Shown: positions 9,345-13,833, counted from the first letter of the stretch. The stretch is DNA of 64,000 bases from an uncultured Clostridia bacterium (GCA_934149005.1 CAKPDN010000001.1:199128-263127); one strand, 5' to 3'. The notes: generated by a model from the sequence alone, not told the origin. Translations and numbers: made by a program.

Positions 9345-10433
9345 CTATTCTTTTTCTAATGCTAATTTTCTTTCTTCATATTTTCTTGCAATTTTGTTCC
9401 AATCAGAAGCTATTTCTTTATTATTTCTATAATCTTCTAAATTATACTTGTTAGATAGTACTTGTCCTATATATTCAGACACTTTTTCAGCTCCATAAAC
9501 ATTTAAATGATTTCCACAATCTGAAGTGTCTTTGGTCCAATCTAGGTTTATTTTTTCTTGCATTTGTGGCAAATTGAAATCAATAAATTCTATTTTGTTC
9601 TCTTTTGCCAATTTTTCTATTTGCTTACTTTTATCTAATGACCAGTCCAATGTTTGTTTTCCTACTGGTCCACTTGTCGCAGTAGGTATTGTTATAAACA
9701 TTAACTTTATATTTTTTTCTTCGCATAATTTAATAATTTTATTTATATAATATAAATTTTCATCTGATATTTTTGTTTCTTGCCCTATTTTTTCTTCCAT
9801 ATAATTTTCTTTATCTATATATGGTTTTATATCTGTAGTTATGGCCATTCCTTTATATGAATAATATTCATCACAACTTTTTTCTCTTGAATATTTAAAA
9901 TCTATGTTTTTTAATTCTTTAAATCTTGTATGAAATCTTAATAATGGAAAAACATATGATATTTTATCTTTTTCTTCTATTTTTAGGTTTTTATCATTAA
10001 TTGCTTCTAATTTAGTTTTTCCTAATTTCATATTATCTAAGAGTTTTCTATATTCTCCTTCTGGTGTAGTTTTATTTTCAAATGCTGCATCCATATCAAG
10101 TATAACTGTTTTTATACTTTGATAATTTATTGATTCTTTTATTAAATAATATGCTAATGATATTGTTTGATTTGAGGTTCCTAAATTATAACTAGTAATT
10201 CCATATTTATTCCAAACTTCAATTGGAGAATATCCTTTGCCTACACTACTTGCACCAACAGCTATAACATCTATAGTATTTTTCTTTTCATTATAATATC
10301 CTTTTATTCTTCCTGTTGCTGGGTCATTTGGGTCTGTCCATTTAGGTATAAATATATATGTAAATAACTGAAATATAATTACCCCAATTATAAAGAATAT
10401 AATTATTTTTAATATTGTATTTTTTTTACTCAT
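9345..10433 (-). CDS. DltD/PatB-like SGNH-type accessory protein of an MBOAT acylation system
   Basis: 362 aa; N-terminal TM anchor then extracytoplasmic domain; fourth gene of the DltA-carrier-MBOAT cassette. Confidence 0.55.
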   Translation of the reverse strand: MSKKNTILKIIIFFIIGVIIFQLFTYIFIPKWTDPNDPATGRIKGYYNEKKNTIDVIAVGASSVGKGYSPIEVWNKYGITSYNLGTSNQTISLAYYLIKESINYQSIKTVILDMDAAFENKTTPEGEYRKLLDNMKLGKTKLEAINDKNLKIEEKDKISYVFPLLRFHTRFKELKNIDFKYSREKSCDEYYSYKGMAITTDIKPYIDKENYMEEKIGQETKISDENLYYINKIIKLCEEKNIKLMFITIPTATSGPVGKQTLDWSLDKSKQIEKLAKENKIEFIDFNLPQMQEKINLDWTKDTSDCGNHLNVYGAEKVSEYIGQVLSNKYNLEDYRNNKEIASDWNKIARKYEERKLALEKE

Positions 10434-10449
10434 CTTTTACTTGCCCCCT

Positions 10450-12042
10450 CTAAAACTGTCCATATATAAAGTCACTTACGACATATTCAGGCCCATATAT
10501 TCCAAATATAATAATTGTAAATATGATAGAATAGTACAATATCCATTTAAAAGGAAGATTCTGTTTAGAAATTTTTTCTCTAATTTTATATCCTTTTTCT
10601 TGTAATATACTCACAATTAACATTATGGTAGTACTTATAATTAATATATTAAAATCAAAATATGTAAATCCTATATTAAATATTTTACCATTAAATAATG
10701 TATCTATATGTTTTGTCGTAAACATATTTTTAAACATATCCCAAGCCATATGTAAATTATCTGCTCTAAAAATAAGCATTCCAAATATAACTATTGTAGT
10801 TGTTCTTACAATTTGAAAAATTTTATAACTAAAGGTCTCTTTATCTATTTTTAATGCTTTTACTATTTTATCTCCTATTGGTTTAAATAGCATTCCAATT
10901 ACCATTATTATATAATAATATAAACCGTAAAAAATATATTTATAGCTAGCACCATGCCAGATTCCATTTCCAAACCAGACAAAAAATAGTGCAAATATTA
11001 CTGGTACTAATTTTGTAATATAGCTTGTTTTAAATATTTTCTTTGCTATATTTGAAATTTTTACTGTTAAGCTTGAAAAAGAAATTGTATAAAATATATA
11101 CTCTTTAAACCATGTTCCTAAAGTAATATGCCATCTTCTCCAAAATTCTTGTACTGATTTCGAGAAAAATGGTCTTTTAAAGTTTTCTGCCATATTTATT
11201 CCTAAAATTTGTGCTGTTCCACGTACTATATCTATACATCCTGAAAATTCTGCATAAATTTGAAGTGTATATAATGCAGCTGCAAAAAATAATGGAATTC
11301 CTATATAACTTTGATAATTTGGAAATACTTCATTTACATATAATGCTGCTCTATCTGCTATTACCATTTTCTTAAAATATCCCCATAGCATTAATTGAAT
11401 TCCAAATTTTGCTCTTTCATAACTAAATTGATGTGGCTCATATAGTTGATGTGCTAAATTGTCATACCTTCCTATTGGTCCTTCTACCATTTGTGGAAAA
11501 AATGAAACAAATAATGCAACTCTTCCTAAATTTTTATCTGGTAAATATTTTTCTCTATATACATCTATAACATAACTAATTGATTGTAGTGTATAATATG
11601 ATATTCCTAATGGCAATACTATTTGTTTTAATGGAATTTCTATTGGTATTTTTATAAAACTAAATATAGAATTTAAATTTTCAAATATAAAATTACAATA
11701 TTTAAGAGCTATTAAAATTCCAAAATTTAATAGTATAGCTGTAAAAACAAGCCATTTATTTTTTGTTTTTGCTTTATGTTTTAATTGTTTTTTTACTTTT
11801 CTATCTTGCTCTTTTTTGCATAATTCTTTTGTTTCAGAATTTATATCTCCCATTTTTAAAGTTAAAACATAAATTGATATTGTTGTTATTATCATATATA
11901 TAATTAATAAATTACTACATAGCCAGTAAAAAACATAACTTGATAATAAAAGCACTACCCATTTTGCCTTTTTAGGAACAACAAAATATAATAAGCATAC
12001 TATTGCCACAAATACTATAAAATTTAATGAATTTATTGTCAT
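10450..12042 (-). CDS. MBOAT family membrane O-acyltransferase (DltB/AlgI/PatA-like)
   Basis: 530 aa polytopic; conserved MBOAT histidine context (WHITLGTWF, WHGASY). Confidence 0.8.
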   Translation of the reverse strand: MTINSLNFIVFVAIVCLLYFVVPKKAKWVVLLLSSYVFYWLCSNLLIIYMIITTISIYVLTLKMGDINSETKELCKKEQDRKVKKQLKHKAKTKNKWLVFTAILLNFGILIALKYCNFIFENLNSIFSFIKIPIEIPLKQIVLPLGISYYTLQSISYVIDVYREKYLPDKNLGRVALFVSFFPQMVEGPIGRYDNLAHQLYEPHQFSYERAKFGIQLMLWGYFKKMVIADRAALYVNEVFPNYQSYIGIPLFFAAALYTLQIYAEFSGCIDIVRGTAQILGINMAENFKRPFFSKSVQEFWRRWHITLGTWFKEYIFYTISFSSLTVKISNIAKKIFKTSYITKLVPVIFALFFVWFGNGIWHGASYKYIFYGLYYYIIMVIGMLFKPIGDKIVKALKIDKETFSYKIFQIVRTTTIVIFGMLIFRADNLHMAWDMFKNMFTTKHIDTLFNGKIFNIGFTYFDFNILIISTTIMLIVSILQEKGYKIREKISKQNLPFKWILYYSIIFTIIIFGIYGPEYVVSDFIYGQF

Positions 12043-12055
12043 TTTATTTTCCTCT

Positions 12056-12283
12056 TTAATCTTCTAATAATTTTTGAATTAGGTTCCATATTGCTTCTAC
12101 AGAATTAAAGTTTTCTGGTACTATATCTTTTACTCCTATTTCTATATCAAATTCATCATCTATTGCAGAAACAATTTCTACTATAGATAATGAATCAAGT
12201 TCTTCATTATCTATTAAATGTTCATTTCCTTTAAATTCCACTTCTGGTCTAATTCCTTTTAATAATTCTAATAATTTTTCCAT
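12056..12283 (-). CDS. DltC-like acyl/aminoacyl carrier protein
   Basis: 75 aa; phosphopantetheine attachment motif LDSLSIVEI; sits between the adenylating enzyme and the MBOAT gene. Confidence 0.75.
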   Translation of the reverse strand: MEKLLELLKGIRPEVEFKGNEHLIDNEELDSLSIVEIVSAIDDEFDIEIGVKDIVPENFNSVEAIWNLIQKLLED

Positions 12284-12315
12284 TTTTTATCTTATTCCTT
12301 TCTCTATCCATAAAC

Positions 12316-13833
12316 CTAGTTTGAAAAAGTTTCTTTTAGCTTAGCCTTGTCTATCTTTCCATTAGCATTATATAACATTTTATCTAATCTATGTATTTCA
12401 TTCGGCCACATATAATTTAATAATTTTTCTTTTATTTGTTTTATTAAGTCCTTTTCTTCTAAATTGTTTTTAGCTTCATAAAATAATATTATTTTTTTCT
12501 TTTCCATATTATAAATACATGCACATGCTATAATTCCATCTATATTATTAATAACTGTTTCTATTTCTCCAAGTTCTATTCTATATCCCATATGTTTTAT
12601 TTGGAAATCTTTTCTTGAAATATAAATAATTTCTCCATTTTCATTTTTCTTTACTATATCTCCTGTTTTATAAATAATTTCTGGGTAAGCAGTATTTAAT
12701 GGATTTTGTACAAATACTTTATCTGTCTTTTCTAAATTGTTATAATATCCCATTGATAAAAATGATCCTCTTACGCAAAGTTCACCTTCTTCTCCTATCT
12801 TAGCCTGAGTTCCATCATCTTTTATTATTAGTACATCACAGTTATTAAATGATTTTCCTATTGGTAATGTTTCATTATTATTAAATCTTCTATCTACAAC
12901 ATAATATGTACATACATCTGTTATTTCTGTTGGTCCATATAAATTTATAAATGTTGCATCTGGTAAATGATCCATCCATATATTTAGTTGTTTTACAGGC
13001 ATTACTTCCCCTGCAAACATTACTTTTTTCAAATTTGGTAATTCTACTTCATCTAAGGCTTTTAAATTAGCTATTATGCAAAGTGCTGAAGGAACCCAAT
13101 ATACTGTATTAATTTCTTTTTCTTTCACAAATTCTAATAATTTTACAGGAAATGAAAAATACATTTTAGGTATTATAACCATTGTTGCTCCACTAACCAT
13201 TGTAGTATAAGTATCTAATGTGGATGAACTAAAATAAAAAGGTGTTTCGCTACCAAATTTAGTTGTTTCGTCTATTTTAAGTGTCTCTTTAATAATTTTT
13301 GAGTAAGTTATAACTGACCTATGGCATATAACTATTCCTTTTGGAGTTCCTGTAGAACCTGATGTAAATTGTATATACATAGGGTCTGTATCTATTATTT
13401 TATTTCTTATGTTTTCTAATAATTCTTCATTCAAATTTTCCTTTATTAATTCTTCATAAATATAGATATTGCCACTGAAATTAAATTCTTTTATTTTTTC
13501 AATGTTCTTTTTTTCTATAATTATTACTACATCTTGTAATGTATTTAATATTGAGTTTATTCTCTCTTTAGGTGCTTTTATATCTAATACTGTAAAATAA
13601 TTCCCACTATATGTTACTCCCATCATCGTTTCTAAACATGTAACAGAACGGTCTATATAAATTGCCACAGGTTTATTTGTATTATTAATTTTATTAGCTA
13701 AAGAATTTCCTATAGTTTTAGCTGCTTTTACAAATTCTGTGTATGTGCTTTTACGATTTATGTCTTCATAAATTACTTTATCTGGGAATTTTTCTTTCGT
13801 TTTTTCTAGTATTTCTAAAATATTTCTATACAT
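12316..13833 (-). CDS. DltA-like adenylation enzyme (carrier-protein ligase, AMP-binding family)
   Basis: 505 aa; AMP-binding core motifs FTSGSTGTPKG and YGPTE; immediately upstream of the carrier protein. Confidence 0.8.
   Translation of the reverse strand: MYRNILEILEKTKEKFPDKVIYEDINRKSTYTEFVKAAKTIGNSLANKINNTNKPVAIYIDRSVTCLETMMGVTYSGNYFTVLDIKAPKERINSILNTLQDVVIIIEKKNIEKIKEFNFSGNIYIYEELIKENLNEELLENIRNKIIDTDPMYIQFTSGSTGTPKGIVICHRSVITYSKIIKETLKIDETTKFGSETPFYFSSSTLDTYTTMVSGATMVIIPKMYFSFPVKLLEFVKEKEINTVYWVPSALCIIANLKALDEVELPNLKKVMFAGEVMPVKQLNIWMDHLPDATFINLYGPTEITDVCTYYVVDRRFNNNETLPIGKSFNNCDVLIIKDDGTQAKIGEEGELCVRGSFLSMGYYNNLEKTDKVFVQNPLNTAYPEIIYKTGDIVKKNENGEIIYISRKDFQIKHMGYRIELGEIETVINNIDGIIACACIYNMEKKKIILFYEAKNNLEEKDLIKQIKEKLLNYMWPNEIHRLDKMLYNANGKIDKAKLKETFSN

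Follow-up and report, generated by a model that had tools for sequence, protein, structure and literature searches.

D-alanylation of teichoic acids controls surface charge, antimicrobial-peptide resistance and immune signalling in Gram-positive bacteria, and the mechanism of the tyrosine shuttle carried by DltX was reportedly solved in 2023 by Schultz et al. In the Dlt system the 'acyl shuttle' motif FXYXXF lies at the C-terminus of the microprotein DltX, whose tyrosine takes D-alanine from the carrier protein DltC via DltB and passes it on to DltD (PMC12148441). PatA, AlgI and similar MBOATs instead carry the motif fused at their own C-terminus on two extra transmembrane (TM) helices; PatA auto-acetylates its own motif tyrosine and PatB uses the acetyl-tyrosine peptide as donor, by a mechanism solved in 2025 (PMC12148441). 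These non-Dlt pathways are described as carrier-less and acyl-CoA-using (PMC12148441), and the literature searched, PMC12148441 among the sources, lists DltB, PatA, AlgI and WssH as bacterial MBOAT systems, with dependence on a carrier seen as a property of Dlt only. Here we describe a four-gene cassette encoding an adenylating enzyme (A), a carrier protein (C), an MBOAT acyltransferase (B) and an SGNH-fold partner (D), found in a 64,000-nucleotide stretch of DNA from an uncultured Clostridia bacterium (CAKPDN010000001.1:199128-263127; hereafter the window, with coordinates counted from its first letter). Judged by sequence, the cassette is a Dlt-like adenylase and carrier joined to a PatA-like fused shuttle, and we think it reasonably probable that it works as an MBOAT-SGNH system fed by a carrier protein, which esterifies a glycopolymer outside the cytoplasm with an acid that is probably not D-alanine.

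The cassette and its fused shuttle motif

The cassette consists of four open reading frames (ORFs), all co-directional on the minus strand, in the order A-C-B-D. A (12316-13833) encodes an adenylating enzyme of 505 residues (Pfam AMP-binding, E 1e-58, and AMP-binding_C), C (12056-12283) a phosphopantetheine carrier protein of 75 residues (Pfam PP-binding, 25.8 bits for a cut-off of 20.8) and B (10450-12042) an MBOAT transmembrane acyltransferase of 530 residues (Pfam MBOAT, 31.3 bits for a cut-off of 27). D (9345-10433) encodes a 362-residue protein whose predicted fold is that of a membrane-anchored extracytoplasmic SGNH transferase, the functional counterpart of DltD and PatB. Because the profile matches are strong, the four ORFs are genuine genes and not chance ORFs. 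A preliminary description of this DNA had claimed four ORFs at 9345-13833, and they are present at exactly those coordinates on the minus strand; the FTSGSTGTPKG motif it reported in A, the LDSLS carrier site and the 530-residue MBOAT are all seen in the translations and profiles. The gaps between genes also confirm that the cassette is co-directional and tightly packed between wzx and glf, being 9 bp from wzx to A, 32 bp from A to C, 13 bp from C to B, 16 bp from B to D and 83 bp from D to glf. Consensus matching found no terminator-like site in these gaps or in those of the surrounding gene block, the second of two polysaccharide blocks described below.

Residues 140-385 of B align to the DltB structures 8JEM and 6BUG (E ~4e-22), and both conserved histidines are present, His305 (in RRWHITL) and His363 (in IWHGAS), aligned to the histidines of DltB. 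DltB is an MBOAT of ~400 residues that has no shuttle motif at its C-terminus. B is ~115-130 residues longer than DltB, with ~90 of the extra residues at its C-terminus, where hydropathy places two TM segments (459-477 and 498-516) past the DltB-aligned core. The last six residues of B, translated from 10453-10470 on the minus strand, are FIYGQF, which fits the FxYxxF acyl-shuttle motif with Tyr527 as its tyrosine. DltX is a membrane microprotein of ~45 residues, and we found no separate ORF like it: among the ORF ends in all six frames of the window, that of B alone has the motif. The final hexapeptide F[IML]Y..[FY] recurs in essentially every full-length carrier-linked MBOAT of the related loci considered below. 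Unlike members of the carrier-less class, this MBOAT with a fused shuttle has genes for an adenylating enzyme and a carrier immediately upstream. It is the presence of Dlt-like donor genes together with a PatA-like fused motif, and without a DltX ORF, that leads us to place the cassette across both classes.

A fused shuttle motif is typical of the acetyl-CoA-using PatA/AlgI class, which raises the alternative that B and D form an ordinary acetyl-CoA O-acetyltransferase, like PatAB or AlgIJ, while A and C serve a separate cytoplasmic step such as the making of an N-acyl sugar. We give this alternative very little credence. In at least 32 species-level loci the gene just before that of the MBOAT encodes the carrier, related loci with other gene orders likewise keep A, C, B and D together, Pfam reveals no acyl-ACP-using sugar N-acyltransferase in the gene block, and the sole curated MBOAT model that B matches is that of the carrier-dependent DltB.

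The partner protein D has one N-terminal TM helix as its anchor, and its sequence alone gives a sub-threshold GDSL match. An AlphaFold2 model of D, made from a 42-sequence alignment, has a mean predicted local distance difference test score of 89.3 and an SGNH fold like those of DltD and PatB; the longest aligned stretches (214-220 residues) were with DltD, although at the level of sequence D matched no DltD model. Block I (G-x-S) and block V (D-x-G-x-H) are kept in the 42 D homologues, and from the alignment and the fold together we propose Ser62, His309 and Asp305 as the predicted catalytic triad. Remoter D homologues (P0179-P0241 in alignment A1) have G-D-C in place of G-x-S at block I and may use a cysteine nucleophile.

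Curated Dlt models and the adenylation pocket

The equivalog and subfamily cut-offs of NCBIfam provide a curated test of Dlt membership. All scores of A, B and C fell below them, at 16-62% of the Dlt cut-offs. For A the values were 294 bits against the DltA model NF003417 (cut-off 476) and 283.1 bits against TIGR01734 (cut-off 559.85), for B 148.6 bits against the DltB model TIGR04091 (cut-off 375) and for C 24.2 bits against the DltC model NF003464 (cut-off 68) and 16.5 bits against TIGR01688 (cut-off 52.35), while D matched no NCBIfam model, DltD included. A scored 305.6 bits against TIGR01733, just under the cut-off of 317.4. By any curated test the cassette is not a canonical dlt operon, and no canonical dlt genes were found elsewhere within the window. 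The term 'Dlt-like' used in the preliminary description thus suits the four functional parts, but it does not extend to curated membership for any of the four proteins.

Comparison with structures in the PDB gave a similar picture. A scored 154-192 bits against the DltAs of four genera and 202 bits against PheA, a nonribosomal peptide synthetase (NRPS) domain, whereas Bacillus subtilis DltA scored 393-610 bits against each of the other PDB DltAs. Since A-DltA scores are far under DltA-DltA scores, A lies, on these sequence comparisons, outside the DltA clade and roughly equidistant from DltA and NRPS A domains. The phylogeny of the adenylation domain that had been proposed as a check is answered here coarsely, from scores, with A falling outside DltA. 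A is 25.6% identical to B. subtilis DltA (3E7W), matches the AlmE structure 4OXI distantly (E 2e-34) and retains the NRPS-type core motifs TSGSTGTPKG, YGPTE and YKTGD, together with the lysine of the specificity code, Lys493 in NGKID. In C, Ser31 stands in the motif ELDSLS. Of the 55 PDB matches of C the best is the aminoacyl carrier protein 4H2S (E 2e-4), and none is a DltC chain.

To read the substrate pocket of A, the specificity code was anchored in two ways, by a HMMER alignment to LgrA and by a MAFFT alignment to B. subtilis DltA, the DltA sequence used matching PDB 3E7W with few mismatches, all outside code positions. HMMER aligned FYFSSSTLDT of A to FSFDGSALDI of LgrA and to YIFDISVAEI, and MAFFT aligned the same region to FSFDLSVMDLY of DltA. 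Over positions 235-517 the code reads S S L Y M A L D V K in A and D L M T M C T V A K in B. subtilis DltA. Position 235, which is Asp in DltA and in A domains for alpha-amino acids, is Ser202 in A (codon at 13228-13230, minus strand, placed by the alignments and translation). Across the DltA residues D196, L197, M200, C268 and V, A has S, S, L, A and D, so that Asp196 of DltA (B. subtilis numbering) becomes Ser202, Cys268 becomes Ala274 and the Val position becomes Asp303.

In DltA the amino group of the D-alanyl moiety hydrogen-bonds with Asp197, Thr297 and Val301, and Leu, Met200 and Cys268 form the cavity for the methyl group, with the Cys selecting the D-enantiomer (PMC8972799). A domains for alpha-amino acids have Asp235 and a C-terminal Lys as their conserved anchors (PMC11355689), and substitution of Asp235 has been associated with domains that activate hydroxy or carboxy acids (PMC11356792). 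Because both DltA determinants are replaced, by Ser202 and Ala274, D-alanine bound in the DltA manner seems an unlikely substrate of A, and on balance we favour the view that the acid loaded by A is not D-alanine. The pocket's Asp303, which the family conserves, points to a small substrate with a polar or distal-amine group. No characterised specificity corresponded to the code S[SM]xY[ML]ALD[VI]K. It had been held that the substrate cannot be read from the sequence; with both D-alanine determinants replaced, it is partly readable.

These results bear on the alternative that the cassette performs housekeeping D-alanylation of lipoteichoic or wall teichoic acid, by way of a DltB to which DltX has become fused, its position in a polysaccharide operon being incidental or co-regulatory. 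The cassette has the same four functional parts as Dlt, one source names a 78%-identical A homologue D-alanine--poly(phosphoribitol) ligase, and Asp303, near the site of the alpha-amino group, might replace Asp235. We nevertheless regard this alternative as unlikely, as all four proteins are far from the curated Dlt equivalog cut-offs, four of the five side chains that contact D-alanine differ, the enantioselective Cys included, and A is no closer to DltA than to PheA of the NRPS class. Names in the sources are inconsistent, homologues appearing variously as 'D-alanine--poly(phosphoribitol) ligase', 'amino acid adenylation domain-containing protein' and 'SGNH/GDSL hydrolase family protein', and the exact window proteins are present in public assemblies without a protein name. 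For the clade with Ser at position 235, the automated label 'D-alanine--poly(phosphoribitol) ligase' is probably wrong.

Related loci, the candidate acceptor and a proposed relay

A family scan covering a single genome for each species found 80 loci whose A homologues are 45-80% identical to that of the window. Almost all are from gut, rumen or faecal metagenome-assembled genomes of Clostridia, Bacilli, Lachnospiraceae and Ruminococcaceae; the Bacilli bins include Erysipelotrichales-like and Acholeplasma-like members, and there are a few Treponema and Bacteroidales bins too. The tight A-C-B-D order was found in at least 32 of the 80 species-level loci, every one of which has Ser at code position 235, with the consensus S-M-[STL]-Y-[LM]-A-L-D-I-K. 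A-C-B-D is the norm for a large coherent family, so that the order noted in the preliminary description is confirmed here but its label 'non-canonical' falls away. Within the Ser235 clade, the cultured Clostridium beijerinckii HUN142 (L030) has its genes arranged B-D-A-C. The cassette belongs to a large uncharacterised sister family of Dlt, different in design and probably in the acid it uses. The best tblastn match among plasmids, a Paenibacillus locus at 41% identity, was rejected as unrelated, being of an adenylase-carrier-ketoacyl synthase III type without an MBOAT.

Other members of the wider group differ at position 235. A sub-family with Asp235 has the code DNLFLCLDAK and is mostly from Lachnospiraceae. 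A formyltransferase gene (Formyl_trans_N, E 1e-21) accompanies 16 of 31 Asp235-type cases and none of 51 Ser/Val235-type cases, the cases being phylogenetically non-independent, and this correlation fits residue 235 tracking the presence of an alpha-amino group. The gene lies between A and the carrier gene (for example L057:11561-12427; also L050, L060, L062 and L073), an arrangement that suggests N-formylation of a carrier-bound amino acid before its transfer to a polymer in those loci. DUF6056 and DUF6020 membrane proteins accompany the formyltransferase-bearing Asp235 loci. Cassettes with Val235 have, by eye, a sodium-solute-symporter-like or amino-acid-permease-like gene inside or beside them (L035:4466-6055, L036:2760-4355, L046 and L045:11779-13242), which hints at an imported acyl substrate.

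In the window, the cassette sits within a polysaccharide gene block, all on the minus strand. The block begins with genes for a DUF4422 protein and two GT2 glycosyltransferases (16524-19374, by Pfam), followed in the order of transcription by a TagF-like CDP-glycerol glycerophosphotransferase (15357-16499; Glyphos_transf, E 2e-45), the second Wzx-type flippase of the region (wzx, 13843-15360; Polysacc_synt, E 6e-22), A-C-B-D, the UDP-galactopyranose mutase Glf (8116-9261; TIGR00031, 417 bits for a cut-off of 304) and a 603-residue polytopic membrane protein (6289-8100) without a family match. The TagF-like gene overlaps the start of wzx by 4 bp, and the cassette is one gene downstream of it. 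The Pfam neighbours bear out the earlier claim that the cassette is embedded in a Wzx-type glycan operon beside a TagF-like enzyme. This tight packing between wzx, 9 bp away, and glf, 83 bp away, argues against a housekeeping D-alanylation system, in whose favour it may be said that many relatives carry the cassette free-standing among housekeeping genes.

We counted neighbouring genes within 7 kb, with families confirmed by Pfam, in the nine closest loci (L001-L008 and L081). Teichoic-acid-type neighbours (Glyphos_transf, TagD-like, IspD-epimerase resembling TarIJ, or an ABC-2 exporter permease) were found in seven of the nine, and the window cassette is an eighth case with such a neighbour. 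In the relative whose A is 78% identical, a TagD-like cytidylyltransferase and three Glyphos_transf genes lie upstream of the cassette, and a GT2-Glyphos_transf fusion, another Glyphos_transf and a DUF6020 protein lie downstream. Teichoic-acid genes are the sole recurrent functional neighbours, as a housekeeping role in D-alanylation would also have it. The recurrent partner in the closest clade is a polyol-phosphate transferase, which supports an ester on one hydroxyl or another of a glycerol-phosphate-bearing polymer. The glycerol-phosphate-bearing acceptor put forward in the preliminary description therefore gains comparative support, and we lean slightly towards the polymer encoded by this operon as the acceptor.

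Taken together, these homologies suggest the following relay. A would adenylate a small carboxylic acid and thioesterify it to phosphopantetheine on Ser31 of C, and the acyl-C would dock at the cytoplasmic face of B. With His363 of B as catalyst, the acyl group would then cross the membrane and be attached at the outer face to Tyr527, in the FIYGQF tail of B itself, the fused tail taking the place of a separate DltX microprotein. From the acyl-tyrosine tail the group would be handed to Ser62 of D, which would esterify a hydroxyl of the flipped or polymerised glycan outside the membrane. The likeliest acceptor would be a Wzx-flipped, galactofuranose-containing repeat unit that bears glycerol phosphate added by the TagF-like enzyme. 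We hold the relay with more confidence than either the identity of the acceptor or the claim that the acid is not D-alanine.

Several points weigh against this proposal. All of its steps are drawn from homology, and the delivery from carrier to MBOAT comes from gene adjacency only. The DxGxH of block V in D is one residue longer than the classic DxxH. Asp303, whose 330/331 register is ambiguous by one residue, could stand in for Asp235, because in DltA and PheA residue 330 is adjacent to the alpha-amino group; the substrate could then be an amino acid, even D-alanine. As to the acceptor, no CDP-glycerol synthesis gene lies within the window, 26 of the 34 tight A-C-B-D loci have no teichoic-type neighbour within 7 kb, and in at least one such locus the cassette is free-standing, between VanZ and polA (L084/L085). 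Since teichoic neighbours are mostly absent, the acceptor may be a common wall polymer and not the product of the locus. We did not adopt Asp303 as a simple replacement for Asp235, because Asp330 does not track the change at 235 and is also present in most Asp235-type relatives.

The same carrier-fed machinery could also use an acid other than D-alanine on a different acceptor, such as another envelope polymer, a glycolipid anchor or peptidoglycan. The genomic settings of the cassette are many, and most lack polysaccharide genes within 7 kb; SGNH partners of MBOATs act on diverse polymers (PMC12148441). We think this reading as a whole rather improbable for the cassette, given its embedding in the operon here and the recurrence of polyol-phosphate polymer genes in the closest clade, and we retain the glycopolymer of the locus as the preferred acceptor.

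The wider locus and comparison with known systems

GC content is ~24% across the window, and the first 40 kb carry nearly all their genes on the minus strand. Upstream of the block that holds the cassette is another set of polysaccharide genes, in the order VanZ, Bac_transf, glycosyltransferases and a hexapeptide acetyltransferase, an EpsG-type polymerase, pyruvyl transferase, Wzx and an FrhB-like Fe-S protein. By Pfam, these include the VanZ-family gene (32702-33202, minus strand), just upstream of the polysaccharide region, the initiating Bac_transf phosphoglycosyltransferase (31844-32554) and, all on the minus strand, the polysaccharide pyruvyl transferase (24515-25627), the first Wzx (23087-24514) and the FrhB_FdhB_C/4Fe-4S protein (21931-23097). 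The pyruvyl transferase and FrhB-like protein genes thus border the first Wzx on either side. Each block has its own Wzx, with the Bac_transf initiator and the EpsG-type polymerase in the upstream block only. An AAA_14/DUF4143 ATPase gene (19579-20826, minus strand, by Pfam) lies between the two blocks. A VanZ gene is also found directly upstream of the free-standing A-C-B-D in a relative with a 63%-identical A (L084:8883-9485; L085:909-1514). A promoter-like site at 19453-19424 on the minus strand, with 11 of 12 matches, is a consensus match only, and such sites are rarer in the window than in shuffled sequence. No RNA family was found in the window with Rfam.

The 603-residue protein at the tail of the second block has ~11-13 TM segments in its first 410 residues, followed by a soluble tail of ~190 residues, and searches of Pfam and NCBIfam, even with matches allowed up to E 5, assigned it to no family. 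Its gene also accompanies the cassette and glf on an independent contig (L086), and its membership in the cassette system is uncertain. It may be a GT-C-like transferase, a polymerase or a ligase; the possibility that it is the counterpart of the DUF6020 protein of relatives was rejected, there being no significant similarity.

Further downstream are genes for a small surface protein with a sortase, Wzz/CpsD/CpsB-type regulators and GlmM. The surface protein, secreted and 171 residues long (5704-6219, minus strand), ends in KLAYTGNN, a hydrophobic segment and KKQ, and adjoins the sortase gene (5074-5685, minus strand), the two resembling a pair of sortase and LAYTG-type substrate in the polysaccharide region. 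Elsewhere in the window, a minus-strand gene at 36373-37254 encodes a membrane protein whose C-terminal half is made up of Lys/Thr-rich tandem repeats (EEK[TP]KRK[TA]TTK...), and three minus-strand genes (47716-48381, 61932-63272 and 63312-63857) are type IV pilus-like by eye, appearing to encode a prepilin-like protein, a PilC-like platform and a PilT-like ATPase fragment.

In the openly accessible literature searched, we found no cassette of adenylase, carrier, MBOAT and SGNH protein described for polysaccharide or teichoic loci. The parts and their chemistry have precedents; the combination, the Ser235 pocket and the breadth among gut Firmicutes are undescribed in that literature. Tentatively, and with rather more doubt than assurance, we suggest that the cassette represents a third, undescribed architecture for the acylation of envelope polymers, widespread in gut and rumen Firmicutes, which acylates surface glycopolymers bearing glycerol or ribitol phosphate not with D-alanine but with, for example, a hydroxy acid or a non-alpha amino acid. 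If this were true, commensal surface polymers would bear an unrecognised ester modification, and the generalisation that a carrier is used only in Dlt, while MBOATs with a fused motif use acyl-CoA, would be incomplete. The cassette is common in uncultured gut Clostridia, Erysipelotrichales-like Bacilli and their relatives, and if their surface polymers bore a different ester, this would bring a new variable into host-microbe interaction, phage adsorption and the immunogenicity of the polymers.

Among known systems, DltABCD(X) of Bacillus, Staphylococcus, Streptococcus and Lactiplantibacillus resembles the cassette in its ATP-dependent adenylating enzyme and small carrier, in an MBOAT with two conserved histidines, an FxYxxF tyrosine shuttle and a membrane-anchored final transferase, in the window of predicted SGNH fold, and in its genomic linkage to genes for polyol-phosphate polymers. 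It differs in that its shuttle is on the separate DltX and not fused to the MBOAT on extra TM helices as here, and the window proteins, in the order A-C-B-D, fall below the Dlt equivalog cut-offs. The Asp and Cys of its D-alanine pocket are Ser and Ala in A, the carrier C is closer to generic acyl and peptidyl carrier proteins than to DltC, and the cassette lies inside a Wzx-type heteropolysaccharide operon. PatA/PatB, AlgI/AlgJ/AlgX and WssH/WssI share with the cassette an MBOAT with a catalytic histidine and an FxYxxF tail, and a separate extracytoplasmic SGNH partner, but they use acetyl-CoA with neither carrier nor adenylating enzyme (PMC12148441), both of which are encoded in the window. 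NRPS A domains for hydroxy, keto, aryl and beta-amino acids are alike in fold, in core motifs and in having a residue other than Asp at 235; A is unlike them in standing alone and in serving, as we propose, polymer decoration and not peptide assembly. In the AlmEFG system, which adds glycine to the lipid A of Vibrio cholerae, a DltA-like stand-alone adenylating enzyme and a carrier likewise feed an envelope acylation. There AlmE is glycine-specific, the target is lipid A, and AlmG is an acyltransferase of the LPLAT type acting at the cytoplasmic face, not an MBOAT-SGNH pair. Because it joins a Dlt-type donor side to a PatA-type fused shuttle, the cassette would offer a natural test of whether the chemistry of the shuttle is independent of the type of donor.

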